NCBI GenBank assembly: GCA_045837725.1
Contig: JBEWZL010000127.1
Coordinates: forward strand, 1-64,000
DNA from: Vermamoeba vermiformis
Taxonomy: Eukaryota
Direction of reading: 5' to 3'
Length of the DNA: 64,000 nucleotides
This document shows, one piece after another, positions 1,292 through 44,750 of the stretch. The notes under the pieces were generated by a model. That model made no database searches. It was not told the origin of the DNA and saw nothing but the letters and a program-made list of their open reading frames with translations. The position numbers and the translations under genes were made by a program. The first letter of the stretch is position 1, and each line of letters starts with the position of its first letter.

Positions 1292-3058
1292 ATGGAGCAG
1301 AATGAACGCATGTCTCGGCTAGACGCAGGTATGCAATCGAGTGATAGCGGATGTGGCTAGCTAGCTTAACCCATCTAGGTTGACACGTCAATTTTCATTA
1401 GAAATTTGCGTGTAATGACGCAATACAATTTTTAAAATTTAGGCATGCTATTTTTCACCCTAAGCCACGCACAATTGTAATATTAATTATTTTTTTCAAT
1501 TTCGAAAAAGATTTTTTCACCAAGAATCTGCACTACGCGAGCACCTATTGGGAGGAGCACAGTGAAAACTTCAAAGAAATGGTGCAAAAATTAATGACAG
1601 AAGACACACTGGACAAAGTGGGAGGCAATGCGAGTGTAATGGTGCTGACGTTCAATCAGAAGACGGGCTGGATCGAGCAGCAGTACAACACCGACATCAA
1701 CACCGAGGCCTATTCCAAACTGCGCGCAGAGATCAACAAGGACAAGCTCTATTTGTGGCGCATCATGGAGGCCTATTTCGATGCCCTGCACCGTCAGCGC
1801 GCGACCTTTGTGCAGGTGAGTGGTGGTCGCAATGCCGCAGATCTGAAGAACAGTCCCGAACTGCTCAGCATCAAGCGCGTATTCAGTTCGGACCAGTACG
1901 ACGACTCCAAGCTCGCGCCTTTCGCTGCGCAGTTGTTGCCCGCGCAGTACAGCGTGGAGCAGTGTCGCGCCAATTTCTATCCGCCGCTGCTGCTGCTGTG
2001 GCTGCGCTACTTGGACATTTACGACCGCGCGGTGCAAGGCCTGCCCGTGCAAGTGCTGCTGCATCGCCTGCAACACCCGACTGTGCACAAACCTCCGCCC
2101 AAGGACGAGAAGGAACAGCTCATGCAAGAGCTCGGCAATCAGATCGCGCAGGGTGAGTGCTATTTTTAGCGCCGTGTGTGCCCGTGTATACTGACAGGGT
2201 GACAGCATTCGGCAAGAAAGAGTTCTGGGACAACAGATACGCTGGCCTGTCCCTCGCCTCGCCAGCCTACGAGTGGTACATTGCCTGGCCACACATTCAA
2301 CAGTTGCTCGTGCAGCACGTGCCGCTCTTCAGTGCCACGCACCAGGGCTCCACTCCACTGCGCGTCATGGATCTCGGATGTGGCAACAGCACTCTCGCGT
2401 AAGTACCTAATTAGGCTATGCATTGATCAATATCTCCTTCTCATCTCCGCCGTTCAGTGAACAGCTGTGGCAGGAGTACGGCACGACAGCACCGCTCAGC
2501 GAGGTATACGCCATAGACTTCTGCGACCGCGTCATTCAACTCATGCGCGCACGTCAATCAGCGCAGTCACGTGATCACGTGCACTATCTCATCGCGGAAG
2601 CACGTGATCTCACAAAGTTCTACGTGCCGGAACAATTCGTCGCGCCACCGAGTGGTGACAGCATGGAGGCGAAGATGGAGGCCCTCAAACTGAGCAAGAA
2701 TGTCGCGCGCACTGAGCACGTGATCGGAGATTTGAGTGGAACACTTCACTTGGCGATCGACAAAGGCACCCTGGACTGCATCATTTGCAGCCCTGAAGGC
2801 ATTGCAAGTATTGAGCGCTATTTTAAGGAGGTGTCGCGTCTGCTCGTCCCTGGCGGCTACTTTGTGCTCATCTCGTGCGCCATCAACAAGGAACGCACCT
2901 CATTGGTCGACGCACCCAAAAAGTACAACTGGCAAGTGCAGCACGTGATCGAGCAGACTGTCGTGCAGCAGCCTGATCCCATCGCCGCTGTGGACCCGAG
3001 TGCGAGTCAGAAGCCTGTGGAGAAGACTATCTTCACCATCATTGTAAAGAAGTTGTAA
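1292..3058 (+). CDS. Class I SAM methyltransferase (METTL13/EEF1AKMT4-like) with a long unrecognised N-terminal region
   Basis: Motifs FGKKEFWDNRY, YEWY, MDLGCGNSTLA, AIDKGTLDCI and RLLVPGGYFV. Introns at about 2153-2198 and 2399-2457. The 5' exon at 1292-1328 joins in frame via an intron to 1510, but the start is uncertain (1579 is an alternative). Confidence 0.75.
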
Positions 3059-4045: not shown

Positions 4046-7000
4046 CTACTGCGTGTAATTGACAGGTGTCGCAGTGCCACTGTTGTTCGCAGATTCAGCG
4101 GCAGATTTGGCTTTGAGTGTCATCTTGCGCAGACACTTGGGACAGTTGCCACTGACCAGCGCAAAGCAGTGTCGATGATAGACGGACTTGCACTTGACGC
4201 ACAGCGCGATCTTGTCCAGCTGAAAGGGGAACAGCACTTCTTTGCGGTTGTTGCAAATGTCGCAAATGTGTCCCTGACCACGACACAGCGGACATTGCCG
4301 CGTCACGTGCACGATGAATTGTTCCATCAACTTGTACATAAATGGCAACAACACGCCTGTGCGCACCTCCATCAAGTCTTTCAGTGAATACACGTGCAGC
4401 TGTTGCAACAAGTGCAAGCGAGACTGTGGCTCCGTTAGTTGATTGCCTTATTTGGTAATTGTTTGCATACCTGCAAAGATATGACGACAGGAGCGCAGTG
4501 TTTGCAGCGCAGCACGTACTCGGAGAGGGGGATCATTTGTCGCCGCAATTTCTGATGCATCAATGGTGAGTCACGCGCGTCAGAACAGCACAGTGCTCGG
4601 TACTTACGCGCAGCTGATTGAGTGCGGTGACCCAGTCGTAGAGCTGTGGATTGTTGACACCGACATTGATGATGGGGTCGTCAAAGTGCGAGTCAATGTG
4701 TCGCTTGGCTGCAGTGCACACCGAGTACTCCCTGAAGTCCCAGTGATGCACCACGCGTGCGGGGATGATGGCGCGCTTCTTGCTGTGACACTCGCTGCAG
4801 TAGTAGCCGCCCGTGTAGTGACAGTAGCGCACTGTCTTGAAGAAGCCGCTGGACAGCTGACGTCCGCAGCCAGCACAGCGCGATGCAGTGGTGAGCGGTG
4901 CTTTGACAGGCTGATCGAGTATGAAGGACTGGTCGTCAATGTTGATGAACATGGGCATCGAGTTGTAGTCGCGCTCGCTGAGCTGACGAGTGATCACGCG
5001 CTCATCGAACAGCTCTTTCTCGTCATCGGCTGCTGTCTTGTGCACCACATCGTGACTGTCGTCCTCTGCTATGAATAAAAAGCCTATTTTGGGCTGATAA
5101 TCATCTATCACACGCGATTGCAAGATGTAGCCCAGATTGGACTTGACATCACGTGCTGGCTCTTTCTCTGGACTGGCAAGTGGCACGGGATATGTCAACA
5201 TGCGCGTCAGTTCCGCGCTCGGATTGATGATCTGCGCTGTCAGCTCATCGTCCACTGACTCGGAAATTTCCGTCGTGTCGTCAGGAGATTGTTCGAGCTG
5301 CGAATTCGCTGCTAGCGGCGTGTCAGTCGATGGCAAAGTGCCACTCACACTGGTGTTCAGCTCATCACGTGACTCATCGTGCCAGTGACGATCTCCCAGG
5401 GCTTGTTCTACTTGTTGCAGCAGCTGATCGTGCTCGCGCATCATTGAGTCTATATTTAGCAACATGTCACCTGCTGTGCTGTCCGTGTCACCCACTGATG
5501 ACGCGGCATCGCTGTGCATGTCATCAGTCACGTGATCAATGACTTCAGGCACGTGATTGCTGTCAGTGATTTGGGACTCGTTGTTCACTGAATTTTCTTG
5601 TCGGTCATCGTGTGTCACGTGCTCGTTATTACCATTCGGTTCATCACGTGATGTTTGATCTCGGGTCGGAGATTGTGCAAGATCACGTGATCGTCGCGCA
5701 TGCCGCTCTTCAACGACATGTCCGTTCGGTGAATCAGTGTCGAGTGCCACCACGCGCTTGACTGGTCTGCGTCGCTTGCCAGCACGCTTGTCCTGTCCGA
5801 ACAAGTTCACTTCTACCAGGGCCTCGTCTCGCACGCGCTGATAATAGTCCTCGAGGTCGAGGCGCTGCTGTTCGAGACGCAGCTTGAAGGTCAGTGGCTT
5901 CACTGCGCGCAACAGCACCAGCAATATCTCCGCTGCTCGAGATTGCGTCACGAGCGCATTCAGTGAAAAGAACTGGCTCATCTGTTCGTGCGGTGTGTCA
6001 ATCAGGGCGCGGAACAATTCATCCAACAATTGCTGATTGGCTGCTTCAAACAGCGCAGCGCGAAAATAGCCTAATTTGGAGCGAATAGTGACAGGTCCGA
6101 TGGTGTCACCTGTCACTTCTGTCACGTGCTCGGGATCATCGGAGAAATTGACCGCTTCAATGAGAGCACGCACGCGCGCGATGAATTCGCGTCCACGTGA
6201 CCAGTGCAGTTCGAGCAGTGCCACCCAGTCCCACAACTGACTCGCGGCACCTGTCAGTCCTTGACGCGCGATCACTTCGAGCTGTTGGAGCAGGGACACA
6301 CCGCGCTGCGTGTAGATGGGCAGCGGATTGACGGCGTGTTCCTCGAGCAGGGCTGCAATTTCCTTATATAGTTCGTAGAGCAGTTCGCGATCACGACTGC
6401 TGATGCTGCTGTCACTCGTCAACAGCGCGGGCACGTGACTGAACTCCACGCTGGACTGCGCGGCATCCTCGACGGGAGATTGCGCGTAGATTTCTTTGGG
6501 AGAATCGAGTTGTTCCGAGCTCGGTGCGGACTCTCGACCAGGGCTCGGAACTTCTTCCTCGTCTGGCAAGATGACAGGTGGTCGTGTGGGACTGTTTGAC
6601 AGGTGTCAGTGCCCTCCGCAGAACTATATACATCGTGTCCCTATGAGACCAGTACGTACATCATGGGCTGCGCGAGCCAGTACTTCTCTTGATTCAGCTG
6701 CGGATCTTTGAGTTTGAGACTGAAGTTGACGGGGCTAATGCTCTCCAACAGCGATATGAACAGATTGCGCTCATCTTCATTGCGCAATAGTGCATAGTCT
6801 TGATAATGCGACTCGGTCAGTTCTGGATGCCACACCAAGGACTGGATGTACTCGGCCAAACAGTTGTTGTTCAGCGCGTACCGTACAAATATACGCGCAC
6901 GACCCTCTGCAGACTGACCGACAGTTCTGCACAGCACAAGTCACTATTAATAGGTGCACAGAGAGAGTGGTTCGTTACGTACTTGATTTCATCGATTAAC

Positions 7001-11677: not shown

Positions 11678-12537
11678 TCACGTGCGCAGCCAAGGATTAG
11701 CTCGCTCCACCGCGCTGTGATACGAAGTGAGCAGTTGTTGTCGCACGTACGACACATCTTCTGCATCGAGAGCACTGCGCGCAATCAGAAACAGGGGCAC
11801 TAGTAGCGCTAATAATAGCCGATCAATGGTCATGCTTGGTACTGTCCACAGCACGAGCACTGAGGCGAGCAGATGTGGGTGACGCATATGAGTGTAGAGG
11901 CGTCGAGTGGCATCAGTCTTGTCCTCGAGGGGCGTAGTCTTCGTATTGAGTATATAGTGATAATAGAGATGCTTCACGCCACTCATTTCAAAGTGGTCAA
12001 AGAAGAAGGTTTGTACGACGAGCAACATCCAGCCAAACAGATGTGTCCAGTGCAATATTGTTGCCACCGAACTGCGTGGTTTGGCCCATAGTGTCCATAA
12101 TGTCGTTGGTGTCCACAGCAGCATGACGATCTGGTCAGATATTCATTAGATACTAAGCCCGCCAAAACTAAACAATAAACACGCGCAGTACCTCGATGAG
12201 AATGAGTGCGCATATGACGCGAATAGGCTGCTTGAAGAGCGCGGTGGAGAGTTGTTCTGTTTGGGTGGTTGCTCGATCGAACAGCGCCACGGCTACACGT
12301 AATAGCAGCAGATCGAGTGCGAGTGGCGCAATAAACTGCGAGACCATCGTGCTTATACTAACAGTGCCTAGTGTAGCGGTGGTAATTTGACGCGCAAGTA
12401 ACTGCCATCCACTGCTGCAGGGGCACGGTGAGGCTGTTGAGTTGTGGCTCGCTTGTCAGCCACCGAGCACAGTGCGCAGCTGTTAATAGCAAGGCTGCAT
12501 ATAGAGGCAGTGCGTATAATACGAATAACAGCCGCAT
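11678..12537 (-). CDS. NRM: Nurim / MddA-family membrane protein
   Basis: PLALDLLLL, FDHFEMSGVKHLYY, LYTHMRHP, WTVPSMTIDRLLLA and LDAEDVSYVRQQL. The N-terminal part (MRLLFVLYAL..) joins only with a 1-nt shift in the G run at 12420-12423 or a weak intron. Confidence 0.75.
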
Positions 12538-12681
12538 TGATGGTGTTCAGCTGCACGAGCAATAAAATAAAGAATGAAGTCCACGAGCGCAGTCTTCGTG
12601 ACGTGTTCGAGTGAACAACACTGATCAGTTCAATTGACTGAGCTATAGTTATTATATTGCATATTAGTTGAAACCAGCACA

Positions 12682-13666
12682 ATGAGTTGGGGTGAGTATG
12701 GCAGATCTGTTTTCAGCAGTTAATTAATTCTCAACATTATATTATTCAAATATAATGTTATTTCTACCATAAATTATTATTCATTAATGCACCACAATAA
12801 ATTGTTATTTTTAAATTGTTGTTAATTTGTTGCGACGTGATCCGATCTAATTAACAAATTCGCAGAGGACGCTGATTTTGATGACTTCAAGCCCGCTAAG
12901 GATACACCTATCGTAGCCAATCAATGGGACGATGAAGACAAACCAGATCTGAATATTGAGAAAGAGTCTTGGGAAGATGAAGACAAGCCAGATCCAACAC
13001 CCAACCCCACACCCAAACCCAATCCTCCAGCCAAGAAGAAGAAGTCACAAATGCGCAAAGACCAATTAAAAGCAGCTGAAGACGACAAAGTGGTGCCGCT
13101 CTCGAACGAAGAGAAGCTGCGTCGTCGCGAGATGGAGGAGAAAGCAGATTTCGAACACACCAAGTCACTGCTGGGCTTGGAGGGCGAAGAGGAGAACGGC
13201 AAGAAGGGTCGCACTGACTTGGAGCTCTCTGACCTCTCCGTCGTGGTGCCTGTCAAAGCTGAGCCTGTGGCAGTCGATCTGTCCTCGCTGAGTCTGAAGA
13301 GCAGCGCTGGATCTGAAAAAGAATTCGATCAAATTGCGCAACAAGTCGCTGGCAAGTTGACGGGATTCAGCAACAACACGCACTATCCTTATTTGGTCAA
13401 AGCACTGCTCAAACAGCTCACGCACGCGATGGATGCAGAAGAAGTGCGCGAAGTGGGCAAGAGCGTCGATTTGATCTACAACGAGAAGGTCAAGCAGCGC
13501 AAGGGTGGCAAGGTTACTAAAAAAGGTAATGTCGATCGATTAGGTGCACCGGCAAGCGATACTAACACGTGTGACAGCAACGACTGCAAAGAAAGCAGTT
13601 AATTTGGGCCGCGAGTCCCTGGCGAATGACGAAGAAGTGTTTGACGAGGCCAGTGACTTTATGTAA
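12682..13666 (+). CDS. EIF3J: Translation initiation factor eIF3 subunit J
   Basis: MSWED.., QWDDED..KESWEDED, EEKLRRREMEEKADFEHTKSLLG, and a C-terminal DFM*. Confidence 0.9.
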
Positions 13667-13766
13667 CGCGTTAGAGCATATAAATCTGTTTCAATAATAC
13701 CTGTATCTGTGCGCTAATTACCGGCCATTTTATTCGGAGAATATGTACAAATAAGGCAATGCCTCG

Positions 13767-16700
13767 CTAATTGAGAGTGCCGCGACACTTGGCGCTGGAG
13801 CACGAGCACGGAATCTTGTACTCTTCGGGCTCAATCGGGAACTTGTAGTCGTAGGTGATCTCTTCGCCGACTGCAATGTCGCGCTTGGAGTAGATGACAA
13901 TCTTCTTCTGCTGCTCCACGCTGATGATCTGCGCATAACAGTTGGGCTGAGTGGAAGAGGTTAGTGAACTGCTATTGTCACACACATATATATGCCAGTA
14001 CGTACATCGCAGCAATGATTGATGAATCGCGCGAGATTGCCCTTCATGGTGGCATCAATGATCCAATTGTCGTCGATGCGGAACATGTAGCTCGAGCCAA
14101 TGCCAATCGCTTCGTAACGCTTCTCACGCTCATCAGCGACCTTCTGCCGAATGATCTCGCCAATGTACTCGATCACCATGTCGTCCGCTTGAATGGGCTC
14201 CAGTGCAAACAGACCCCAGTCGTGAATGCCGCTCTTGTCGAAGGTGAGCAGCTTCTTGCGCGTCTTGAGCAGATTGAACTTCATCAACTCGCTCGTGTCT
14301 TTGCTGCCACCCATCATGGCCTGCTGTCCCAGTGACGACAGCAAGTGGCGGTGATTGATGCGCGTGTCGCGGCCAGTCGAGACTGCGCGTTGACCGAGGA
14401 TCTCTTTGTCGTCGTCGAGCACGCGTGATCGTCGTTCAGGAATGTAGCGCACTTTCTCCGCACGACTCTGCTTGTAGTAGCCTTCAGTGCGCGCACTGCC
14501 CGTCACGTGGGGGCTGATCACTGGCACGGGTTCGGGCACGTGACTTGGTTCCGTGACAGGTGCCACCACTAGCTCGACCTCCGTGTCATGCACGTGCTCA
14601 ATCACGTGCTCCTCAGTGTGACGTGTCAACATCATCGCCGCGAGTCGATCACGTGCCACTTGCGCGTAGTACTCGTCCTCGTTCTCCAGCACCGGATCGA
14701 TCTCCGTCGCTTGAAGTTTCTTTAATTGGTGACGGTGTCGCTCCTCTGCTGGCACTGTTGTCGCACTCGTCGTCGGATATTTGCGCGGTCGTCCTCGGCC
14801 TCGCTTGGTGGTCTCCTCGTCACGTGATTTGACCACATCTGTCACGTGCTCGTGTGTCACGTGGTACTCGTCGTGCTGGCGTCGTTTGCGTTCTTTTTTG
14901 GTTCGTTTGCGCGGGCGATCTATTAATAGATCATCGTCCTCCAGCAAGTCCGAGGACTCCTCTGACATCACGTGACTTGAAATTTCATCGTCGTAGCTGT
15001 CGCGCTTGCGTTTCTTGCTCGGCGAACTGCTCGCTGACACGACTGGCTCGGGCTCGGCTTTGACAGGCTCGGAAATTTCCATTTTTGTCGGCGACTGTTT
15101 TGGCTTCTTGTTCAGCCTGGGCACGCCCGAGAGTGTGATGGGTCTATTTTTAGCAGCAATCTCGACCACGTTCTGCACCTGTTTCTCCTGCTTGATCACC
15201 TCCATCGCCTCGCGCTTGACGAGATCTTCTTCCGCATTCTAAAAATAGCACCGTTAGTGGAGTACGCAACAGGCAGTTCTATATTTAGACTCACGCGCTT
15301 GGAGAGGTGGCTCTTGATGAATGCCTCCACAAAGTGTCCCACGGTGTTCTCGATCACCATGCGGTGCACTTGTTGCCACGTGCTCGTTTTGAGATCTCGC
15401 AGCAGGAGATTCAGCACTTGACGCTCATCGAGTTCCGCGCTATTTTTAGATTCAATCTTTGCAGAGCTATCGTTGTGGCCATTGGCACTCGTGTCCTCAT
15501 CGCGCGGTCTATATTTAGACTTGTGCTCGGCGCTGTGCGGAGGTCGTCTTTCCTTTTCTGGAATTAACTTGTAGCAGCGCGACACTTTGTAGCCGTGGTT
15601 CATGAACGCCATGGCTTGATCACGTGCCTCGGAGGTCAGAAACGCAATGTACCACGCGTGCTGTTCTAAAAATAGAACCACTGGCTCGAACGGTTCGATT
15701 AATTTGAACACATCACGTGCTTGGTATTCGTCCAAATTAGGCAATATCAGCGCTGGTACGGGACTCGTCAAGGTCGGCAACAGTGTTTGCAGTTGTTCGC
15801 GCGACCGATAATGACGGGGTGGCAGAGGTCTGCGGGGAGGTGCGGAATAACTCGGATAATGGGGTGGTGGCACGTGATAGGGTACTGGGGGCGGACGTGG
15901 CACGTGACTGTGTGCTTTGACCACGTGATCGTCATCGATCTCCATGTCATCGTCGTCGTGTCCTCCGCTCATCTCGCTGGGTGCGGAGATACTCGGGGGT
16001 GGTGGCACGGGCACGTGATTGTACGGCATGTCCCAGCCATAATTGGGCACTACCATATTAGGCAATGGCGCTGGAGGTGGGTACGACTGCATGACATCGA
16101 GGGCCCATGGTGGCACTGTGAGATTGCCACGTGATTGCGCATTGACAGGTGTCACAGTGCCACCCTTGCGCGGATCGAGCACGTGATCGCTGGCATTGGT
16201 CCAGGTGCCATCGCCGAGACTGAGCAGCGAGGATGCCACCATGACGCCGTTCACTTGATAACTCCGCGCGCCAATCAGTTCGTTGCGCTGTTGGTACCAC
16301 CGCACGTGCCAGTTGCCACCTTGCAGCGGCGTGAACAGCTCGTCGTCTGCAATGAGCACTGCGCGGGGATGGATCTTTGCAGCCCAATCATCCAGGGCAG
16401 GGAACTCGCTGCGCGTCAGTGATTGGCTGACAGGTCGCGGTGGAGGTGTCGGAGTGACACTTTGACTTTTTTGGACTGCCACTGGTTCGGGCACGTGACT
16501 CGGCACTGCCTCGCGCGGTCTGATTGGCACTGGTTCATGAACGCGCTGCCTGTCACGTGATCGACTGCGACTGCGGCGCGGACTGCGATGAGAATTGCCA
16601 TATTTGGGCATGTACTCGGTGCGATACCGCTCACGTGATCGACTGCGGTCGTTTGAACGACGTCCAGACCTGTCACGTGATCGACTGCGCCGTGGTCTAT

Positions 16701-17137
16701 AATTAGCGCTGTAATTGGCTCCGTGGTGGCGCGGTCGATCGCGCTGTTCGTAGTACCGCTCGGGGGGTCTGTCGTAGTGTCTGTAGATACATTAATATTC
16801 TGCTTCATCATTGCATGTACTGCAGTGATAAAGTGATGTTCAACTGACCTGCGCGCGTAGTGATCGTGATCTGGTCGACGATTGTAAGAAGAAGAATAAT
16901 TTGGTCTTCGTTGAGTATCTTCGGGTTGATCTACAATACGAGGTAATTAATATAGTAAAGAATTAATTATTAATGAGGAAAGTGAATTAATTTTCATTTT
17001 CAAATTGGCGCGATCTGTCGAAAGTACTAGAATTCAGAGTTAATCATTCTAATACACATGTATCATAAATACATGACATAATTTAGTAATAGCTAATTAC
17101 CAACAATAGCTCCCTCTTCTTCGGCTGAATCTGCCAT
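13767..17137 (-). CDS. SET1: Set1/KMT2 histone H3K4 methyltransferase (multi-exon)
   Basis: WIN motif [38 protein letters not shown] and post-[16 protein letters not shown]. First exon [12 protein letters not shown] at 17137-17101. Confidence 0.95.
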
Positions 17138-18166
17138 GTCTAGATCCGATCCACCAACAATCAATAATTATACAGGACAATTTTGTGGTGTTGATCCTGG
17201 GGTTTGTGAATAAGAATAACAACTTTGCCGCTGCCATCGTCGCGGAAATTTCTGTGTTGGCCGAGAATTCTAAAATTTTTCGGATTAGATCGTGAACGAA
17301 AGCAGACTGATCAGGAAACAAGATGTCACCGAACAAACCTGGCCTAACGGGCAGAGTAATAGTGCATATGAAGACAAAATAAGGAGATGAACAGCCGGTT
17401 ATCGTCAATTGAACCTGCACGTCTAAGGGGACAGCCAGGCCAAGTGGCTGGCCAAGCCTTTGCTGCACTCATCATAGGGCAAGGTTGTGTTGCCCTTTCT
17501 CTAGTAGTTGCTGTGTTGGGCCTTGATAACCTTGATTTGGTGGGCCTACATCCCTCTTGAGCACCGAGACTACATTTCCAAGTTGCTGGTAAATGATTTT
17601 GGGTAAACTACAAGACCTACTGCACCACCACCAAGGTTAATAGTGTTCGGTGAGAAAAGAAAGAGAGGCAACAGCCAAGTAAAGCTCAACATCCCTGTGC
17701 AACCAATGTTCAGAAGCCCTGCTAGAGCCAGGAGAACTTGACTACAATCTCCTCCAGGTGAATTTCTATACCTGTGCAGAAGGGAGGTTGTCCTGCACAT
17801 GGTGAGCAAGGTGTCCGTCCATGGTCAGGGTGTCTGTCCATGGACAGGGTGTCCACCGTGTATGGGGCATCCACCGACCTTAGTAATTCACCAATTCAAA
17901 TGCACCTTGCTTCAGTGTGTAGAACATGAATATAATATGGGTGGTTTTTGCTTTCTGGTGGCTGAGGAGTGCTGTAGAACGGAGAGTAGGAGGGGATGAA
18001 GTTGCCATACATTGGTGATTTCAGCAAACCCCATTTAAGTACTAGCACAGAGATTAACCACCCGTACAAAGATTGATTATGAATTTTCTGGCCATTTTGT
18101 TGCTTACATATGAAGAACTCCAATTGAATTTAGTTGCAAAAAAAGTGTTACTTTTAAGGAACCAAC

Positions 18167-18391
18167 CCGGGGGACGGCGGGGCCGAATTGGCCAGGGTGG
18201 CCAGTTTGGTCAGCCACCCAGATTTTTTCTAAGTCCAATAAATAAAAATCCATGGGGGGACGGCCGGGCCGAATGGTGCAGTAATAGTATACTAATGCCT
18301 CATATGTACAGACGCACCAGTTGGTGCCTTGTACCATACCTACATACCTGGCCGGCCACACTGGCCAACTTGGCCTGGCCGACCTCCCATG
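18167..18391. repeat. Nested GGCC-rich direct and inverted repeat
   Basis: GGGGGACGGC(C/G)GGGCCGAAT at 18169 and 18255, with an inverted degenerate copy at about 18353-18391. Confidence 0.6.
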
Positions 18392-18624
18392 CATCAATAG
18401 TTCTGTATAGAACTTGGTGTATTTTCAATTCATTACAGATTTTGTAGTGCTGAAAGGGTGTGCATCTCAACTTTTTTGTATCGGGTTTGATTTGAGTGCA
18501 CGCATAGATTTGAAAGCTGCTTCATAGTTATTGAAAATGTAAACATTTGGAGCCAAGTGCAGAAGTAAGTTCTGTGATAAGTCTACTTTTTCCAGCTCCT
18601 TTAGAAGTTGTCCAAGACTATTGG

Positions 18625-18716
18625 ATACACTGGTTATAGCAGAAACATATCAATAATACAAAATCTATACACCGGTTATAGCAGAAACATATCAATAATT
18701 CAAAATCTATACACTG
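18625..18716. repeat. 42-bp tandem duplication
   Basis: ATACAC(T/C)GGTTATAGCAGAAACATATCAATAAT(A/T)CAAAATCT twice (units start 18625 and 18667), plus a partial unit at 18709. Confidence 0.9.
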
Positions 18717-19026
18717 TCAAGAAAACCTAAGGTCAGCGGACGCCCCGTCCACGGTGGACACCCTGCCCATGGTGGACATCCAGCTCACATATGCTAGCTC
18801 CAAGAGCTTGCTGGCCAAAGAAAAAACATAAATCTACTTAGAACTAGTCATTTTTATGTGCATCACCCAGGCTCTGGTGTTAGCAGCAAAAAGAAAAAAA
18901 TAAAGAATGGAACTTATCTCTGGTGCTGGGTTCTTTAAATATAGCCTCCATAACTTGCCCAATGCAGCATAATGCACAGCAGACCTTGCATCCAGATGCT
19001 AATGGACCCCTAGATCTGCCTCCATG

Positions 19027-19270
19027 GGATGGCCAATCCTGTGTGGATGACTAGACAGCCAGGGTGAGATGCCAGCCCGGCTAAGTTATCCAGCCTGGAC
19101 AGTAATAACTCGGCGAATCGTAATACTATGTTCTTAATTGCATGAATCTTTGTTACTCAAATTGAATGCATTAGGTCACCCAAAGCAAAAGAAGTTCGTT
19201 GCAAACCCTCCATATACTTTTCTGCTGGCTGGACATCTCAGCCATGTCATCCACACTGGATTGGCCATCC
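19027..19270. mobile_element. 244-bp MITE-like element with 25-bp terminal inverted repeats
   Basis: GGATGGCCAATCCTGTGTGGATGAC (19027-19051) matches the reverse complement of 19246-19270 with one mismatch. Subterminal inverted repeat at 19065-19077 / 19227-19240. Confidence 0.65.
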
Positions 19271-19378
19271 TCCAACACTACTGGCCATTCTGTTCATATT
19301 GAGCAGAACAACCCCAGAAGCTTCCATAATTACTTAATTTGAACAAAGCAGTTATTTACATCCATCTATTTACAGCAT

Positions 19379-21060
19379 TTACAACGTTTTGTGCTGGAAT
19401 TTGAGCGAAACAAACCAAGCAAAGAGCGTGAACAACGCGCTGGGAATGAATATGAAGTCAAACCAGCGGTGATAGAAGTTGAAGTGAATGTTGCTCAACA
19501 GCTCCGTGATGATGGTGCGGTACTGCAGCGGCAGTGACATGCGCATCAAGAGCACGGAGGACACAAAGTACATGCCCTGCACGTGACTCATCATCAGTGC
19601 AATCCACACCGCGCTGTCGTGCGAGGAGTACTCGTTGAAGATCTTCATCAGCTGCTTCAAGAAGCCGCGGATCGAGGTGGCAATCATAATGCCGATCATG
19701 CAGAACGAGATGGACTGCGACCAGAACTGCACGTCAATGTTGATGTGCAACAGACCGAGGGCAATGCGCAGTCCGAGCGTGACTGGATCGTGCTTGATGA
19801 TCCGATCGAACACAATGTTGATCGTTGCCTAAATGCGGTAAGTGCGCTGTCGCTGAACGTTGTAGTGGCCCTTACCATAAATAGCTTGTACAGACAGTAG
19901 CCCGAGAAGAAATAGCCCAAAAAGTTGTAAAACTTGCCTAATATGGTGCGACTGAATTTGATGCGATCTTGTTCCATCTTCAACTCGCTCATTTCTAAAA
20001 ATAGCTCGCGATTGAACTCTTCGAGCGATGAAATTTCGTGTTTGAGCGAGGTCTCAGTGATCACGTGCTCGTGCTGCGCGGTCGAGGGCTGCATCCACTG
20101 CTTGAGCGCGCCGAGGCCCCAGCCCTGCAGAGGAGTATTAGTATATATTGATTATACTTCTATTCGACATTCATATGGCGCCAGTACATCACATATGCCA
20201 GTCACTCCATGACTACTACGACTGGATCCAACACCTACCGCGCTGTTCACGATCTGGTCCTCGCGGTCAGTGACTTGACTCGCTCGTCCTGCGCGCAACA
20301 ACAACAACTTGCGCTTCTTGAGCAGTATCTTATCTGCACCTTGTTGTATTTGGCGCTCTAGTGTCGCAACATCTTGGTCTGAGATCTTGCGCAAGAAGTA
20401 CGAGATGTAGAGGAACGGAAAGTTGACGGCACCGTAGCCAGACAAGAAGGCCATGACAGTGACGCCTATGATGCCTATTCTGCTGATGAATACGTTGATG
20501 ATGCGCGTGTCCCAGCTGAGCGGCGTGCTGGGCTGCATCTCGCCCTCGAGTTGTACGGGCAAGGGCTCGCCAATGCGCCACATCAAGTACATGAAGCCGA
20601 GCTGCAACACTGCGCATAGTGTGCCCAATCGGCGCACATTGGTGATCTTCAAGTAGTTCTTGAGTACCATGTAGATCTCGTAGCAGGGTAAGATGCCGAC
20701 CAGCAACACCACGGCGCACAAGAAATCTATCTTCCACATCACCCATCGCGTGCTGCAATAGCAAGGTGTTAGTTGAAAGTACTATATGGAGTTGATGGCA
20801 GTAAATATTGAAAATAAATTAACAATTAATTCAAATAAATTCGTGCAGCCTTACTCGCGGTTCAATACATCGACAATTTCAAAGATGATGAGTTCAAACA
20901 TCGAGCAAGACACCATAAATGTCGCTGAGAATAAGAGCTGTGGTTTCTTCGAGGAGATGTCATAATCGCGCAAGAGCAGTCGCTGAAAGAAATAATTTCC
21001 AAATAAGAAGAACCCTGCGGAGGTGATGCCGAGCAAGAGCAGATCTGAGAGCAGTGTCAT
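19379..21060 (-). CDS. GPR89: Golgi pH regulator / GPCR-type G protein (GPR89/GTG family)
   Basis: FSATFMVSCSMFELIIFEI, SRIGIIGVTVMAFLSGYGAVNFP, GMYFVSSVLLMRMSLPLQYR and FYHRWFDFIF. Confidence 0.95.
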
Positions 21061-21203
21061 AATTAGTGCTGTGTTGGTCTTGTGTGCATGGTGACGTCAG
21101 ACTAACATTCTGGGAGAGTTTTTCTGGGCAGTGCAAAATAAGAGTTACCAAATTAGGAAATATCAGTTATTTACAAGCAGGGGATTACAACGACTATAGT
21201 ACA

Positions 21204-22444
21204 TTACAGCGCAGCTTCGCAGTGCGGACAGAGCAAAGCCAAGCTCAGATCTGCTCGCGCCTGTTTGTACTTGGTGAGGCACGGTTCATGAACGAGACAG
21301 TCACGTGACTGCGCGTGACACTCGCGGAGGTGATCTGCAGGGTCCGCAGCAGACTCGTAGCATATGACACTAAACAGAGGTGAGTTACAGGTGCGCACTA
21401 CAATCACGTGATCACTGACCAATGCGGGCCCTGCTCCGAGCTCGAGTGTGGCGCGTAGATCTTGGTGAGCTCGCTGGTCTGCAAATAACACAGGTCAGTA
21501 CGCACGCGACACAAAGGGGGCTGACAGCACGCACCAGCAAGGAGCGCTGATAGAGCACGGGATCGTTGGCCAGCACGCGCAGCACTTTGAGCAGCACGAA
21601 CAGCAAGTGCGTGCAGTGGATGCCACGCGATGCATTCGCGCAATTGCACGTCGGAATGTGTCCGATCTTCACCGTGTACACCGTGCCCTGGGCGAGCACG
21701 TGATAGGTGTGATCGAGTGCGCTCTCAGTCACGTGGTGCACGAGGCAGTGGCGCTGCTGTCGCGCGAGGTCAATGCGCTCCAAGAGTGCCTTGCTCGGAG
21801 CACTCCGATAGCGCGAGAGACGCTTCTCGACACCTGGCACGTGACTCGACTCACTCGAGACCTGCACTGGGACTGGCGCACTCGCAGTGACACTTGCACT
21901 CTGCGGTGTGACACGCGGTCGTTTGACACGTTGCGCGTCAGAAGTCACGTGCCGCGCCCAGTCCTCGTCGTCGTCCTCGTCCTCGGAAGAATCACGTGCG
22001 CGCTTCACACCACTCACGGACTCACTCGCGCGGGTGTGTTGCTTCAGCCACGTGACAAAGTGTGCCACTGTCAGAGGTCGCTCGTTGACACCTGTCTCGA
22101 TCACGTGACGCGTCCACTGCGCGAGATATTTGATGACGAGTGCGGTCTTGTTCTGATCACTCGTGTCGAGCTCAGCAGTGTCAGTGAGCTCAATGTGATG
22201 GTCTTCGAGCACTTGCATGAGCTGTTGCATCTCTCCCAAAAACAACTCGCGATCTGCAGCATGAACGGGGAATTAAAATTGAATTTGAGACTTTTCGACA
22301 AATACGAATATTATACTACGAGTCCTCTAATTGATAGTATAAAATAATGGCGATATTTTAAAATTATTTGCAGCACGTACCAGCAGGGGACATGGTGCGC
22401 AGTGCTGGATCTGACAACACCGTCGCGACTTGTGCAAAGTCCAT
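21204..22444 (-). CDS. SWIM zinc-finger plus C-terminal RING-variant protein (ZSWIM2/MEKK1-like module)
   Basis: YTVKIGHIPTCNCANASRGIHCTHLLFVLLKVLRV..LYQRSLL, and a last exon with ICYE..C..C..HEPC..CPHC. Confidence 0.75.
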
Positions 22445-22672
22445 GGTTAGTTGAATCGAGACTCGTATTGGTTGTGATCGATTAATCTGTGGTGCAATGT
22501 CGTCAACAGCGACACATTACTCGTTACTCCTTCTCTGCGCAGTTCTCTAGTTCTTGACCGAGCACGTGACAGCGTCAGATCTGCAAATTGGTTTTTTGTG
22601 TGAGCTCAAGGTTCATTCTCACTTTGAAATTCTAACACAACACCACCGCGCTATTAATTATACGCGTAAAAC

Positions 22673-24033
22673 ATGCTGCAGCGTGTTGTTGTAAGTGCGC
22701 TACGGCGACAAAACAGATGGGGCTCTCTAGCGCGAGAAAATCGACAAAATACAACCGCACTGCTTGCGAATATTCACATAAATAATAACAAAAATTGTCC
22801 CAATGCTGGCAGCATTAAATTATATGCCACAAGTAAGCAGATCGTAACCGTTCGGGCGTACCAGCGCTGAACTCATCAATTAATTCCAGGAAAGAAAAAA
22901 TCAACACCCGACATTAACGCAGCTGCGTCGTCAAGTTTAGACAAGTTGATCAAGCAGATCGAAGCACAGTACGGCGAAGGTACCTCATTCAGATCTCGCA
23001 TTGCGCACTGAACTGATTTGTTCCTCGCGCAGGCTCGCTGATCAAGATGGATTCAGCAGCAGGGTCCTATGACCCCACGCGCTCAGGTCCGCCAGTCAGC
23101 ACAGGGTCCTTGGCGGTGGATCACGCACTCGGCATCGGAGGACTGCCGCGCGGTCGCGTGGTGGAGATCTTTGGACCCGAATCGAGTGGCAAGACCTCGC
23201 TCGCACTCTCTACCCTCGCACAGGCCCAGAAAGCGGGTCTGAACTGCACCTTCATTGACGCCGAACACGCGCTCGATCCAAAGTGGGCGCAGACCTTGGG
23301 CGTGCAGCTCGACAAGCTACTCGTGTGTCAGCCAGACAGCGGTGAACAGGCACTGAACATTGCCGACAGTCTGATTCAGAGCGGTGAGATGCACGTGATC
23401 GTGATCGACAGTGTGGCAGCCCTGGTGCCGAAGAATGAATTGGAGGGTGAGATGGGCCAGACAGTGGTGGGCGGACAGGCGCGCATGATGAGTCAAGCAC
23501 TGCGCAAGCTCACTGCCGCACTCAACAAGTCCAGCACGCTGCTCATCTTCATCAATCAGATACGCATGAAGATTGGCGTCATGTTCGGCAATCCCGAGAC
23601 GACGAGTGGAGGGCAGGCACTCAAGTTCTACGCCTCGGTGCGACTGGATGTGCGACGTACGGGCACGGTGAAGAAGAGCAACGACGAGGCCATGGGCAGT
23701 CAGGTCAAGGTCAAGGTCGTCAAGAACAAGGTCGCTGCGCCCTTCAGAGTGGCTGAGCTCGAGATTGACTTCAAGAGCGGCATCAGCAAGAGCGGTGAAC
23801 TCGTGGATCTCGGCCTCAAAACTGGTGTATTGACGCGCCACGGTGCTTGGTATCACATCGCTAAGACGGATGAGAAGCTGGGCCAGGGACGCGACAAGGC
23901 AAAGAAACATCTCGAAGACCATCCAGAGCTCGCGGATCAGGTGTACGAAGAGATCAGAGCGGCACTGATGAGCGAGCCCTTGCCTATTGAAGAGGGCGAG
24001 GAGGTCTTGGAAGAGGAGAGTGAGACTCCTTAA
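22673..24033 (+). CDS. recA: Bacterial-type RecA, nucleus-encoded, probably mitochondrial
   Basis: [41 protein letters not shown] and [22 protein letters not shown]. Basic presequence and two 5' introns. Confidence 0.97.
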
Positions 24034-24236
24034 GTGTAGTGGCAGATGTGTTAAATAAAGGAGTCACTATACTCTTTACTCTACTCTATTACTCGCACAG
24101 TTCAATTTGTACGCGATAATTCACACTGAATGTGCATCCACTGATTCTGACTTATTTCTGATGTGCACTGCTCAGTCCATTGGTAGTACCACACTTTGCA
24201 ATATAAGCACCACATTGCACTCTAAGCACCATCAAC

Positions 24237-25993
24237 ATGAACGCCAAGCCTCAACTGCAGCGCATTCCTATTGCACATCCCACACGCCAGAGCGCAGAAC
24301 TGCTGACCTTGCCCGATGAACTGCTCGTGCTCGTAGTGCGCTACTGTGGCTTGCACGGCACTGCACTGCTCGTGACTACGTGCAAGGCTGCAACGCTGTT
24401 CGTGGACGAGCAGCTGAGAGCAGATCTGTTCCAGCGAGCATTAGCTGCGCGGTAATAATTCGCATAATTACTGGACACTATCCGTTATTAACGGCATGGC
24501 TCAGATCTGACGCGGAAAAAAAGAAACTGCTGTCTCGTCGCGTGGAAGAGCTGAAGCGAGTAAGACCGCACTAACAGCATCGTACTGTATAGTATATAAG
24601 TAGTGACCGCTATTAATGCACTCTTATTCACCCTGCAGCGCGCAGTGTGCTACAATGACCCCGCGCACCTTGATCAGTGCTACAACACGCCGCTCAATCA
24701 GACCAGTGCCACCGTTGAATTGCGTCCCGAAATAGGTTATTCCGCCATCAAATCTCGGCGCAATCTCCTGCAGCTGATCGAGGAGTACGACGCGGACAAG
24801 GTGTTGAGTGCCCTGGTAGAGCTCTGTGCGCCTGACGTCGTCGTGCACGCTCTGTTGCGCGAGTACAGCGAGGGATTGACACGTGTCAAATCGAGGTTCG
24901 TGTCATCGCGTGTCGGTCACGTGACACTGAACACACTGGCACGACACTCGCAGCTGATTGGCCAGTTGATCATTGGGCACGCCAATGTCGACGAGATCCT
25001 GGTACGTGTCACGTGCTCTGTGCGACACACTGATTGACATCTCGTTCACTGAACAGCCGCGCGTACAACCTGCGACATTGTTGACAGCGCTCGTGAACGA
25101 GAAGAAATTTCCCTTCAAACCACGTGATTGGCTCGAATTGTGTTGTCTGAAGGCGCAGGAGTCGCTGTTTGACACGTTGCTGTCACGCAATCCAGCCCTG
25201 GCACGTGACGCGCCATTTATAGCCCTGGTGCTGAATCAGCAGTGCGGCACTCGTCCGAGCAGTGCGGCGACAGCAATTCTGGAGAGTGCTGTCAAACACG
25301 GTGCAGATGTCAATCAGCGACTCCCAGAGAATATTCCGCTCCTCTTTCGCGTCAGTGGCACTGTGCACTCACCACTCGCTATTGCCCATTTTGGCTACAA
25401 AGGCAGCACGCGCATTGCCCTGGTGGAGTGGCTGCTCAAGCACGGCGCGAGATATTCCGCTGCAGAAGTGCAAAGCTTCAACGCCAACACCGCGCTGTCC
25501 GCTGAGACACGTGCCTTGCTGGCACTCAACCAGACCTACGTGCCACTGAACAAAAAAGGAGCGCTCAACCAGGGCAAGAAACAGCACAAATTTGGCAGTG
25601 CTGTCGCGACACTGCTGCTCGACACCAAGACCTTCAGTTATTCCGTCGGAGCTGAGAGCTACAAACACGAGCGCACCGAGTACAGTGGCACGTGGCAGTA
25701 CAACAAATCTGCCGCGCAGATCACTCTCAGTGCCACCGAACAGCGGAAATTCACGCCGCGCTCGAGCTTCAACCAGGGCAGCACGCACGTCAAGAGCTGC
25801 AGTTTGACATTCAAGTTTGGCCTCTACGCGTGAGTAGCAGTCACGTGCTCGGCCATGTGACACGCACTGACACTTTGACACGCACTGACACTTTGACAGG
25901 ACACACGACGAGCGAGTGATGCTGCTGTCTAGTGGCATCAACATGACGATGCTAAAATTAGAACAGCTGTACGAGCTGCTCTTGGCGGAATAA
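24237..25993 (+). CDS. F-box protein with ankyrin-like repeats (multi-exon)
   Basis: F-box LLTLPDELLVLVVRY; ankyrin-like VKHGADVNQ and LVEWLLKHGA. Confidence 0.6.
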
Positions 25994-26143
25994 ATAAGTA
26001 TGCAGCGCCATCGACCAGGGTTCATAGCCATAAATAGACACGAGTGACACGTGATTTATTGTCGCAGGGACCACCGCGCCTTTTTAATTTCACGAATCTG
26101 ATCGATCATATCCTGCAGAGCGGAGAATTAATCACTTGCCATT

Positions 26144-27971
26144 CTAGGCAACTGCTGCTATATTTAGACTCACCTCCAATATCTCTTTCTCGCTCATTCG
26201 AACCAGCACAATATTCCGCATGGTGGCACTCAGTGTATCGCGTAGCAGTGCGCGGTCCTCCTCGACCGTGGTGGCATATTGCCGCAACAGATCTTGCGCC
26301 AATTTCAGCACCGTGTTCAGCGCGGCCTTCTCGTTGAGCTCGTGCACGGGAGATTGCCGCGAGATACGCTCCCGGTACTGCGCGTCAGTGAGCTCCGCGC
26401 CAGTCATGTGCTGCACACGTGCTGCTGTCAACAGATCGTTCGGAGCTACTCCGCGTCGAATCATGAACTGCGTGCTGCGGAATAATAGCGGTCAGTCGCT
26501 GCTGCGCTATATTTAGACCTACTGTTTGATGCCCGCCAGGGCCAGCAACTTCTCTTTGCTGTCGCGGTGCTTGTCACGTGCTGGCAGCGGAAATTCTATC
26601 ACCACCACGTCATCGAGATTTCTGTCAATTTGTGAGTGGTCAGTTGCGGTGATTTTCAGTGAACACTCGATGGCGTACCTGGGAAAAGTAAATCCGTACT
26701 CGAGGAGATATTCCGCATTGGAGAGCCGCTTGTTGGTGGCATAGGGGATCAGAATCTGCGTGCCCTGGGGGATGAACACTTTTGCCAAATAAGTCAAGCG
26801 CTCCTCGTCGGTGGTGACAGTCACGTGCCACTCCTCAGCACGTGCTTGCGGACTGGCAGCATTGGCGAGATCAGCGAGTGGCACGAGTGCGCCGTCGTGC
26901 TGCGTGTTGAGTGCGAACATGCGCGACCAGATCACTGGCAAAGTGCCACCGCGTGTCAGTGGGGGACTGCTGAATAGTGCACGTACCTGATAGCGCCCAT
27001 TCAAAGCCTGATTTGGTAATGTTCACTTGCCACGTGGCAGGAGCGGTGGCATCGATCAGTCCCTCGGAGATTAGCTGCGAGATGTCAGTTCACTGCTGGC
27101 AGGTGCACGTGACTTACTTGCCAGTGCCGCTGAACACCATCACGACGTCGTTCAGTGAATTCTGTCCGTGAATGAGTCATTGCCATATTAGGACATCACC
27201 GTACCTTTGAGCTTGCTTTGCTGCAATTCTTGCAATTCTTCGTCGGAGAAATAGTAGCTGGTGGAGAAGGACTGCGGTAAAATACTGCAAAGAATAGTGA
27301 GCTATAAATAGTGACAGCTGCAGCGTCCAATCAGCGCACTCACTCCAAATAAGGACGCCAGTACGAGTGCGGATTGTTCCGCTCGTTCAGCAGCAGCAGC
27401 GCCATCTCGTCGGTGGCACCCAACGGCTGGTCCTCCAAGTACCACACCAGCTCTTGCACTGCGGTGCGGTGCTGTGCTGTCACGTGCTCGTCAGTCAGGT
27501 CCAGTGCGCGGTGCTCGATGTTGGCAGGAGTGAGGGCGAGTGACCAGGGCACGGAGAGCAGCACTTGGCCGGGCTAGTGGGGGTAGTGGTCAGTAACATA
27601 TTCTTAGCAGCGGTGAGGGGGGGTTGAGTGCTGCACTGGGCTGCATTCATTCGCGGAAATTACAGCCAATGTGACATCACATTCCATTAGCAATGATATG
27701 ATAATTAATGAGGACCATGGTGGCTGTGTATGAGATACTGCGAGACCCTTTGGATCCGGATCCAGCTGCTACTTCGCCTTACCTGAATGTCAGCTGTAGC
27801 GACAAGACCACGACCATAATTATCAAACTCCTTAATGTCTATTTTGTCGAAGATTGCGCCGCCTTGTCGCATCCAAGCTCTGAACGCGTCATATTCATCG
27901 CTCTTGGCTGTTCCTATCAGCACCGCCACAACGACTATGACTCGCAGTAGATTGTACACCATATATGGCAT
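26144..27971 (-). CDS. SETD3/Rubisco-LSMT-type SET protein methyltransferase with a hydrophobic N-terminal signal-like peptide
   Basis: GRGLVATADI, SYWRPYL, WSRMF, LVPLADLAN and SNAEYLLEYGF, plus an LSMT substrate-binding tail (YATTVEEDRALL..VRMSEKEIL). Confidence 0.8.
27605..27771 (+). ncRNA. Candidate structured RNA antisense within a 209-nt intron
   Basis: Nested helices TAGCAGC/GCTGCTA, GGGGTT/GACCCT, GAGTGC/GCATTC, TCGCGG/CTGCGA, ACAGCCA/TGGCTGT and TGGAT/ATCCA. The G-U pairs work only on the + strand. Confidence 0.45.
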
Positions 27972-28302
27972 AGTATAGTATGCGTGACGAGTGGTACGCT
28001 GCGTCAAATCGAATTTAAAACTGATATTCGAATTTGAACTCAACTCTTTACAGCCCCACTGACGCACATAGCGCGTATAGTCGTCATATATATGCCACAC
28101 CTTCCTATACTCGCAACTCGCACGGTGCACTGGGCTGAATCGAGTTCTCGCGGCAATCTCGTCAATTTTCTCACGGCCAGTAGTACTATCAGTTAGCCGC
28201 GCAGTCGAGTAGCACTCACCTCTGCGAGCATCATCAACTGAGACTAGTGGCAGCACAGCTAGAGCTAGAGGCGCGAATTACCTGCTCTGGAAGTGAATCT
28301 AA

Positions 28303-30518: not shown

Positions 30519-30615
30519 TGGGGCTATTGTAACATAGTAAAAACTGAACTTGCTTTCAACAGGTTTATAGCGGTTAGTATTATTATTATTACACAAGTCA
30601 CGAGTGCGCGCACGG

Positions 30616-44598: not shown

Positions 44599-44750
44599 GA
44601 ATCGAAGGTTGAAATGGTGTTCTAGAACCACCGTTTGATTTCTTGGCCTCGATCAATCACGTGACTTGACGTGAAATTTCATTTTTCATGAACGACGCTG
44701 TACATTCCTGCGCTACGCTCTCGTTGCCTATCTGATTGGTGCTCTGACCG

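Follow-up and report, generated by a model that had tools for sequence, protein, structure and literature searches.

CACGTG in SET1 and along the window

The subject of this analysis is the palindromic hexamer CACGTG in the window, by which is meant the whole stretch of 64,000 nucleotides that was analysed (positions 1 to 64,000 of contig JBEWZL010000127.1), and especially in its SET1 gene, which is located on the minus strand and includes Pfam SET and N-SET domains. The hexamer was found 116 times in the window (one per 552 nt), compared to 25.64±4.62 copies, with a largest value of 45, in 100 dinucleotide-preserving shuffles, an excess of about 4.5-fold. When both strands were considered, 232 occurrences were counted against 51.7, 57.3 and 96.0 expected from Markov models of orders 1, 2 and 3, respectively, and no other hexamer of the window was as strongly over-represented at any of the three orders, the enrichment thus persisting against a low-order background. 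Single ten-letter versions of the word reached an excess of about 40-fold.

A first-pass annotation of this DNA had counted 23 copies in 14504-16679 and placed them inside coding exons of SET1. The recount of these 2176 bp also gave 23 copies (one per 95 bp), against 1.63±1.27 and a maximum of 8 in 2000 dinucleotide shuffles (about 14-fold). All of them are located in 14420-15238 and 15295-16780, which are found in one transcript contig from the public run X5 with only the intron 15239-15294 removed. The transcript contigs taken from X5 and from a second public run, X6, are about 99% alike to the window. The features of SET1 are the following:

14006-15238, minus strand: exon with the N-SET domain and the start of the SET domain, 9 sites (Pfam; joints 13946/14006 and 15238/15295 in X5 and X6)
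15239-15294, minus strand: intron of 56 nt without CACGTG, GTGAGT-CTAAATATAG at its start and CTATTTTTAG at its end (joint in X5 and X6)
15295-16780, minus strand: exon with the lineage-specific middle part of the protein, rich in Pro, His, Arg and Ser, 14 sites (contiguous in X5 contig 3)
14504-16679, no strand assigned: the stretch with 23 CACGTG, frames 14/8/1 (shuffles)

No Pfam family was recognized in the middle part of SET1. Inside this gene, X6 differs from the window by in-frame insertions or deletions of 3, 3 and 6 nt at 14577, 16573 and 16886, respectively.

The sites are strongly clustered (variance 2.29 and mean 0.91 in 500-bp bins). The other clusters that had been pointed out at 5100-5700, 21300-22110 and 2560-2950 were recovered with 7, 9 and 5 sites, respectively. 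The clusters outside SET1, to which no strand is assigned, are the following:

2568-2947: 5 sites in a methyltransferase-like open reading frame (ORF) at 2411-3055, plus strand (count, Pfam and ORF set)
5150-5689: 7 sites between the RUN and Rubicon-homology domains of the ORF 4563-6605, minus strand (count and Pfam)
21302-22107: 9 sites, of which one falls in the intron 21370-21419, in a gene on the minus strand with the ORF 21415-22272 (count and joints)
24880-27486: 16 sites across poorly characterized ORFs and introns (count, Pfam and ORF set)
30129-31668: 10 sites in a kinase intron, a coiled-coil gene and its intron 31522-31578 (2 sites)
44658-45353: 6 sites in 0.7 kb free of ORFs, flanked by a FAD-monooxygenase-like gene on the minus strand and by the FKBP gene on the plus strand

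The stretch 44658-45353 additionally carries TGACACCTGTCA, TGACACGTGTCA and GTTCATGAAC, and is a putative divergent promoter. In 21415-22344, which includes a CACGTG-rich gene, both strands are open for about 0.85 kb (286 amino acids on the minus strand and 292 on the plus strand), and the splice joints identify the minus strand as the transcribed one; an in-frame CACGTG is read as His-Val on both strands and thus helps to hold the antisense frame open.

The poor regions were also as first described, with no copy in the HSP60 exon, none in the island at 17.2-19.3 kb (where only 0.2 were expected) and exactly one each in RPN2, FKBP and RecA. The island (17200-19300) is poor in ORFs, almost no transcript contig or read was found there, and it contains three tandem repeats:

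17810-17854: period 19
18625-18714: period 42
18738-18778: period 18

The window is eukaryotic, as transcript contigs align to it with GT..AG introns of 43-174 nt removed. Genes named by Pfam are SET1, the methyltransferase-like ORF, the RUN/Rubicon-homology protein, HSP60, eIF3j, a GPR89-like receptor, a bacterial-type RecA, a kinase, a coiled-coil protein, Sec1, cofilin, RPN2, a DnaB/Twinkle-like helicase, FKBP-TPR, CTU2, YbeY, a FAD-binding reductase, an F-box protein and a RhoGAP. No basic helix-loop-helix (bHLH) gene was found among the window ORFs scanned with Pfam. RecA (23017-24030, plus strand; Pfam RecA E 1e-115) is a single uninterrupted ORF and, like the helicase (42055-42873, plus strand), is set among spliced eukaryotic genes; both proteins are probably targeted to an organelle, and finding them here argues against an animal or a typical fungus. 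In a protein atlas, RecA matched bacterial RecA clusters only. The window RPN2 has a 97% match in a metatranscriptome, followed by unnamed sequences at 62-72% and by Mucoromycota, Glomeromycota, chytrids and the amoeba Arcella at about 59-60% identity, which suggests a protist that branches deeply and lacks close relatives with annotation. For 12000-31999, transcript contigs that are about 99% identical occur in runs under at least two other organism labels, whereas the RNA reads that bear the organism label of the best DNA match reach no more than 90-95% likeness to the window. The source of this DNA may be an organism that commonly accompanies or contaminates others, and its label may cover more than one species.

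CACGTG as a double-stranded DNA word

Depending on the reading frame, CACGTG is translated as His-Val (CAC-GTG), as Ser/Pro/Thr/Ala-Arg-Val/Ala/Asp/Glu/Gly (xCA-CGT-Gxx) or as x-Thr-Cys/Trp (xxC-ACG-TGx). A working set of 48 ORFs (31.3 kb) was obtained by scoring the ORFs between stop codons with a codon table, which had been trained on 11 ORFs supported by Pfam or by transcripts, and 84 of the 116 sites are located in this set. Besides the dinucleotide shuffles, synonymous codons were shuffled within each ORF, which keeps the protein and the codon usage, and whole codons were shuffled as well. In 1000 synonymous shuffles 32.8±4.0 copies were obtained (maximum 48), and in codon shuffles 15.6±4.0; the three frames contain 43, 33 and 8 copies compared to 25.8, 4.7 and 2.3 expected from synonymous shuffles, so that the excess is present in every frame and not in a single one. 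Because the ORF set is heuristic, the key test was rerun on the RNA-supported SET1 exons alone, where the 23 copies (frames 14/8/1) compare to 9.1±1.9 (maximum 15; frames 8.2/0.7/0.3) in 2000 synonymous shuffles and to 2.3±1.4 in codon shuffles. A dicodon-preserving shuffle says nothing about the in-frame class, since all CAC-GTG codon pairs are necessarily retained in it. Among all ORF hexamers compared with the synonymous shuffles, CACGTG ranked first (z 11.7) and CGCGCA second (7.5). His-Val was written CACGTG in 43 of 48 cases, codon usage predicting about 49%, and the word was used for 33 of 82 [SPTA]-R-[VADEG] tripeptides and for 8 of 16 x-T-[CW]. The first-pass annotation had described the motif as falling in different frames, and three are indeed used, the Thr-Cys/Trp frame being rare (8/84).

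The protein sequences are also altered. His-Val occurs 48 times in all ORFs against 23.2 expected from composition, which makes it the third most enriched dipeptide, and Val-His is not enriched; in the SET1 protein His-Val is found 14 times compared to 3.2 expected, and Val-His 3 times. The motif does shape the protein, as had been proposed, and weakly constrained coding DNA (the middle part of SET1, the RUN/Rubicon linker and coiled coils) has been rewritten into His-Val and Ser/Ala-Arg-Asp/Glu/Gly.

With first-order expectations specific for each class, non-ORF DNA contains 32 copies against 8.5 (3.7-fold; 3.8 and 3.7 in the two window halves), ORFs with strong Pfam domains 11 against 6.1 (1.8-fold) and the other ORFs 72 against 12.5 (5.8-fold). 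Five sites lie in the placed introns (14 introns, 1052 nt), which were located from the joints listed (15 of 31), plus one from reads of a strain 90-95% alike. The sparing of conserved genes vanishes once the protein is taken as given, which indicates that the pressure is general: synonymous shuffles gave 4.2 copies for the 11 in conserved ORFs and 28.8 for the 73 in the others, about 2.5-fold in both cases. Compatible peptides are 26 in conserved ORFs and 120 in the rest, and conserved ORFs write His-Val as CACGTG at 6 of 7 sites. Protein constraint therefore sets whether the pressure reaches non-synonymous positions, and conserved proteins take the word only at synonymous ones. The earlier idea of docking sites in gene bodies is not supported as regards a restriction to gene bodies, given the excess in non-ORF DNA and the 6 sites of the ORF-free stretch 44658-45353.

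The flanks extend the word to the consensus R-K-CACGTG-M-Y, with a purine at position -2 in 97 of the 116 sites and a pyrimidine at +2 in 107. Position -1 is T in 54 sites and G in 34, and position +1 is A in 53 and C in 34. The flanks initially reported were also found, TCACGTGA being present at 21 of 116 sites and at 5 of the 23 in the SET1 stretch, where 20 of 23 sites have CACGTGAY or its mirror image. At the ORF sites, T or G precedes the word in 70 of 84 cases (mirror 65/84) and a purine occupies -2 in 74 (mirror 72/84). When sites were read in the sense orientation, upstream and complemented downstream preferences mirrored each other in frame 0, in frame 1 and in non-ORF DNA, as expected of duplex DNA read by a symmetric dimer and not of a single-stranded RNA site or a peptide. 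The two half-sites are chosen independently, since 78 of the 116 sites have no perfect dyad extension. CACGTG, in the form R-K-CACGTG-M-Y, is thus a double-stranded DNA word whose density is raised in the exons of the window (all frames), in introns and in ORF-free DNA. That the signal belongs to the DNA and is no protein repeat, as had been claimed, is borne out by its survival of synonymous shuffles, its use of three frames, its presence in non-ORF DNA and its dyad-symmetric flanks.

A dyad extension of 3-4 bp was observed in 11 sites (1.8 expected), which have been assigned to a distinct word, TGACACGTGTCA (7 copies), with a sister word TGACACCTGTCA/TGACAGGTGTCA (8 copies); TGACANNTGTCA has 15 instances, with CG or CC/GG always at the centre. 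The flanks beyond ±2 are heterogeneous. A hairpin or mobile element (Rickettsia palindromic element (RPE), double-hairpin or miniature inverted-repeat transposable element (MITE)) was rejected on the basis of the 78 sites lacking dyad extension, of the heterogeneous flanks and of the repeat families, which are short and few. A general preference for palindromes was also rejected, as palindromic hexamers have a median observed/expected ratio of 0.96 and the remaining hexamers one of 0.91; the palindromic ones only show a wider dispersion (Levene test, p 1e-5 for order 1 and 0.02 for order 3), partly because of AT-rich spacers.

Other dyad-symmetric words were observed in the window. The 12-letter TGACA-SS-TGTCA is present in 15 copies, 7 centred on CG and 8 on CC/GG, with an order-2 expectation of about 0.02 per version, at these positions:

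878, 6597, 16143, 24877, 30126, 31529, 34246, 41195, 41532, 44810, 45107, 48526, 50948, 53962 and 54063: TGACA-SS-TGTCA

Two of these copies lie within introns supported by RNA, at 7-10 nt before the 3' splice site, and three more are alike by sequence; the TGAC of this word may double as a YTRAC branch point. The other copies are in exons or beside ORF starts. CTAWWWWTAG, which equals the MEF2-type MADS-box consensus, was found 18 times against 0.47 expected (largest shuffle 3), from 2160 to 27311, all in the left 28 kb. Eight copies are in SET1 (14920-16706), six of them exonic in two frames (e.g. AAKNRP, DDLLIDR, VLFLE and KSKYRP), the other two being at the ends of the intron 15239-15294; on the minus strand, the copies at 26158 and 26507 follow GTGAGT- or GTAGGT-like 5' splice sites. 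There are 6 sites of GTTCATGAAC (15598, 16533, 21284, 44180, 44958 and 50707; about 0.04 expected), the two copies in SET1 exons being in different frames, and 19 of TGCGCGCA (about 3.7 expected), 13 of them in ORFs and in three frames. Dyad-symmetric words that are exonic in more than one frame (CTAWWWWTAG, TGACA-SS-TGTCA, GTTCATGAAC and TGCGCGCA) may thus form a small vocabulary together with CACGTG, which would be its strongest member.

SET1 relatives and possible causes of the enrichment

Among 1.84 billion representative proteins, only four relatives of the SET1 middle part were found (P0122, P0123, P0124 and P0126), with 64-84% identity, and the protein search gave no longer SET1 relatives. 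In two metagenome scans no DNA of relatives was found: the SET1 middle part yielded 16 pattern matches, none of which was confirmed, and the 80 loci obtained for HSP60 did not exceed 54% identity, so that they were taken as bacterial GroEL and not used. In this comparison of proteins only, a compatible peptide is present at 8 of 10 motif positions in P0122, 7 of 9 in P0123 and 4 of 5 in P0124 (19/24 in total). His-Val occurs 6 times in P0122 against 1.12 (permutation p≤0.0006) and 6 times in P0123 against 0.89 (p≤0.0004), with 2 and 1 Val-His, respectively, although one of the six in P0122 (C-terminal IGHV) looks like a translated intron. As a control, RPN2 homologues have 0-3 His-Val, with 1.0-1.5 expected. 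The relatives also show His-Val where the window has none (FSHVASD, DDDHVPPSSHVVK and SSHVAAY), and ERHVL of P0123 aligns to ERQVL of the window, which is written CAAGTG, one letter off the word. The residue that follows His-Val in the relatives is Leu, Ile or Thr, all with M-Y at the first two codon positions, which is consistent with the ten-letter DNA consensus. Since the SET1 proteins of the relatives carry the same His-Val excess, the trait is probably clade-wide and old, with turnover of sites.

As the cause of the enrichment, we tentatively prefer, at somewhat less than even confidence, a weak selection acting genome-wide in favour of numerous sites at which an abundant homodimeric protein can dock. 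Each monomer of the candidate protein would read R-(T/G)-CAC. A basic helix-loop-helix leucine zipper (bHLH-zip) factor like Cbf1, USF or TFE fits best, as the consensus is the same as the sites of these factors, R-T-CACGTG-A-Y matching the Cbf1 CDEI site and the USF and TFE/CLEAR sites. Selection on site density would keep existing sites and make new ones wherever the protein sequence tolerates them, and the factor would be a general organiser of chromatin or chromosomes instead of a gene-specific switch. The behaviour of the word is also like that of a binding site in that 6 copies are grouped with other palindromic words in the ORF-free stretch between divergent genes.

Several observations weigh against selection for docking sites. 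All counts come from one 64-kb window and a heuristic ORF set, and no bHLH factor is known to have a function at one site per 95 bp within an exon. Spacing of nucleosome length, which had been put forward as a check, was not observed, since no nucleosome-scale, helical 10-bp or other periodicity up to 600 bp was found in the window. The total of ACGT is 514 against 522 expected, so that CACGTG amounts to 45% of all ACGT in a total that is at expectation, and CATGTG/CACATG was counted 18 times against 66.8 (order 1) or 37.5 (order 2), a ratio of 0.27 that is the lowest of the 16 CATGNN, tied with CATGCT; such a neighbour pattern is predicted by conversion of other words and not by selection of binding sites. 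The equal synonymous preference of about 2.5-fold in conserved and other genes is fitted equally well by a neutral ratchet. In the relatives, residues encoded by the motif are not significantly more often identical than the rest (18/23 vs 243/342, 18/22 vs 215/267 and 11/13 vs 121/183).

Such a neutral ratchet is the less likely of the two causes, ranking close behind docking-site selection. A bias of repair or of gene conversion would make CACGTG from near-cognate words faster than it decays, with no benefit to the cell, and purifying selection on proteins would limit where the word settles. This could operate by methylation-linked repair of T:G mismatches in CA(C/T)GTG, for which very-short-patch repair of CCWGG in E. 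coli and the ratchet suggested for HIP1, the iterated palindrome of cyanobacteria, would be models, or by a conversion bias favouring the alleles whose bound site escapes breaks. The excess in every compartment agrees with a ratchet, as do the unchanged ACGT total and the depletion of CATGTG/CACATG, although CATG as a whole also stands at only 0.54. Other NACGTN contexts are below expectation (0.23-0.92), except TACGTA (1.56); AACGTG reaches 0.30, with low values for AACGT in every context. At compatible peptides, one-off DNA versions of the word are scarce, with 4 against 19.7 in frame 0. However, CpG is not depleted (observed/expected 1.02), which gives no sign of general cytosine methylation, and the neighbours CGCGTG (78 vs 48.7), CTCGTG (65 vs 40.2) and CAAGTG (73 vs 53) are not depleted either, reaching 1.4-1.6 together with CAGGTG. 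At least one gain inferred in a relative needs the transversion CAAGTG to CACGTG, and no sequence-specific mismatch repair is known from the eukaryotic nucleus. The neighbour pattern as a whole is suggestive, not decisive, of the conversion of near-cognate words. A ratchet model has already been cited for HIP1 (PMC5861425, in its excerpted text).

Gene-specific cis-regulation, in which homotypic E-box arrays would occupy the bodies and promoters of a subset of genes (SET1, RUN/Rubicon) without any genome-wide pressure, is improbable. The strong clustering, the housekeeping genes with 0-1 sites and the cluster between divergent genes would be explained in this way, but conserved genes show the same preference when the protein is given (11 vs 4.2, and His-Val as CACGTG at 6/7) and the 3.7-fold excess of non-ORF DNA is found in both halves of the window. 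Very improbable is a signal at the RNA level, with CACGUG acting as an element of pre-mRNA splicing or stability or as part of the branch-point region. Transcribed genes do have a high density of sites in their exons and introns, and several introns carry the word beside a YTRAC branch-point-like box, at 4-12 nt before the 3' splice site, but the flanks are mirror-imaged in the sense orientation, there is no hairpin extension and the word is enriched in 44658-45353, which is ORF-free and probably not transcribed. It is scarcely credible that the excess arose as an artefact from the usage of codons or codon pairs, from a repeated peptide or from the copying of a small element, mobile or duplicated. 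His and Val are indeed mostly encoded by CAC (264/315) and GTG (450/768), and two small intragenic repeat families, SHVPEPV and RSRSRDR, bear 5 of the 23 SET1 sites, but a peptide or codon origin is ruled out by the synonymous and codon shuffles of the 48 ORFs and the SET1 exons, the flanks beyond ±2 and the 78 sites without dyad extension do not fit copied elements, and duplication accounts for at most 3-4 extra copies in SET1.

Relation to known systems and significance

The closest known system is HIP1 (GCGATCGC) of cyanobacteria, which is found in all three frames and in non-coding DNA and is neither a codon preference nor a peptide motif, with a density of up to one per 350 nt and an excess of 15- to 300-fold (PMC5861425, excerpted text). 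HIP1 is rarer in highly expressed or conserved genes, and its origin by selection or by a repair ratchet has been debated (excerpts of PMC5861425 and PMC4390886). CACGTG resembles it as a short palindrome far above composition, in three frames and in non-ORF DNA, at a comparable density. Like HIP1, it is accounted for neither by codon preference nor by a peptide motif, and it is scarcer in conserved or highly expressed genes. Further marks of the HIP1 type are a conservation of sites between related genomes above that of control palindromes and of the same codons elsewhere, a periodicity on the kilobase scale along the chromosome, and orphan methyltransferases for the core. CACGTG differs in that the host genome is nuclear and has spliceosomal introns, in that the word has six letters with degenerate symmetric flanks whereas HIP1 is an octamer, in its lower excess (4.5-fold in the window and 14-fold locally) and in its coincidence with a classical eukaryotic transcription-factor site. 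The eukaryotic HIP1-like system put forward in the first-pass annotation stands as far as the statistics and the use of frames and non-coding DNA are concerned; CACGTG is an analogue of HIP1 and not a member, because the host is a eukaryote and also because the word is another one and the excess smaller.

With the sites of bHLH-zip factors (Cbf1 CDEI, Pho4, USF and MITF/TFE CLEAR) the word shares the core, T or G at -1, a purine at -2 and their mirror images, with halves varying independently as for a homodimer. The known sites are sparse and located in promoters, enhancers and centromeres, whereas here 84 of 116 are in ORFs, where they alter the protein, and only 44658-45353 resembles promoter DNA. 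Cbf1 and Pho4 have been described as nucleosome-invading pioneer factors (bioRxiv 10.1101/2022.03.17.484790, excerpted text). The DNA uptake sequences (USS/DUS) of Pasteurellaceae and Neisseriaceae are over-represented in genes, in several frames and at a cost in peptide composition (PMC1939737, excerpted text). They differ in being non-palindromic and in serving the uptake of DNA by competent bacteria. No process of this type is known from a eukaryote. In very-short-patch repair, the E. coli Dcm/Vsr system acting at CCWGG, the cognate word is enriched and its deamination product depleted. CACGTG is likewise enriched and its C-to-T neighbour CATGTG is low (0.27, with CATG overall at 0.54), but the Dcm/Vsr system is bacterial and the other neighbours of CACGTG are not depleted.

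Considering these comparisons, the system may be a clade-wide counterpart of HIP1, in which a dimeric reader of R-K-CACGTG-M-Y, through selection on docking density or through a drive of repair or conversion, writes its own site into the nuclear genome; we regard this as almost, though not quite, an even proposition. In a full-text search of the literature outside subscription journals, no description of an iterated palindrome in eukaryotic nuclear exons was found in the text retrieved.

Iterated palindromes that override coding constraint are known from bacteria (HIP1 and uptake sequences), and after decades the choice between selection and ratchet is still undecided there. In a eukaryotic case the word would be identical to the best-studied transcription-factor site. 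Counts of E-boxes, codon-pair statistics and His-Val-rich 'motifs' in such a genome should not be taken as gene-specific signals. With meiosis, chromatin and introns, selection and ratchet predict differently in a eukaryote and in a testable manner, and a force acting at the DNA level would shift the amino-acid content of nuclear genes. If the clade-wide counterpart of HIP1 is real, the genome would carry tens of thousands of copies of the word and the proteome would be altered by it, with His-Val at twice the expected frequency and at four times in SET1.

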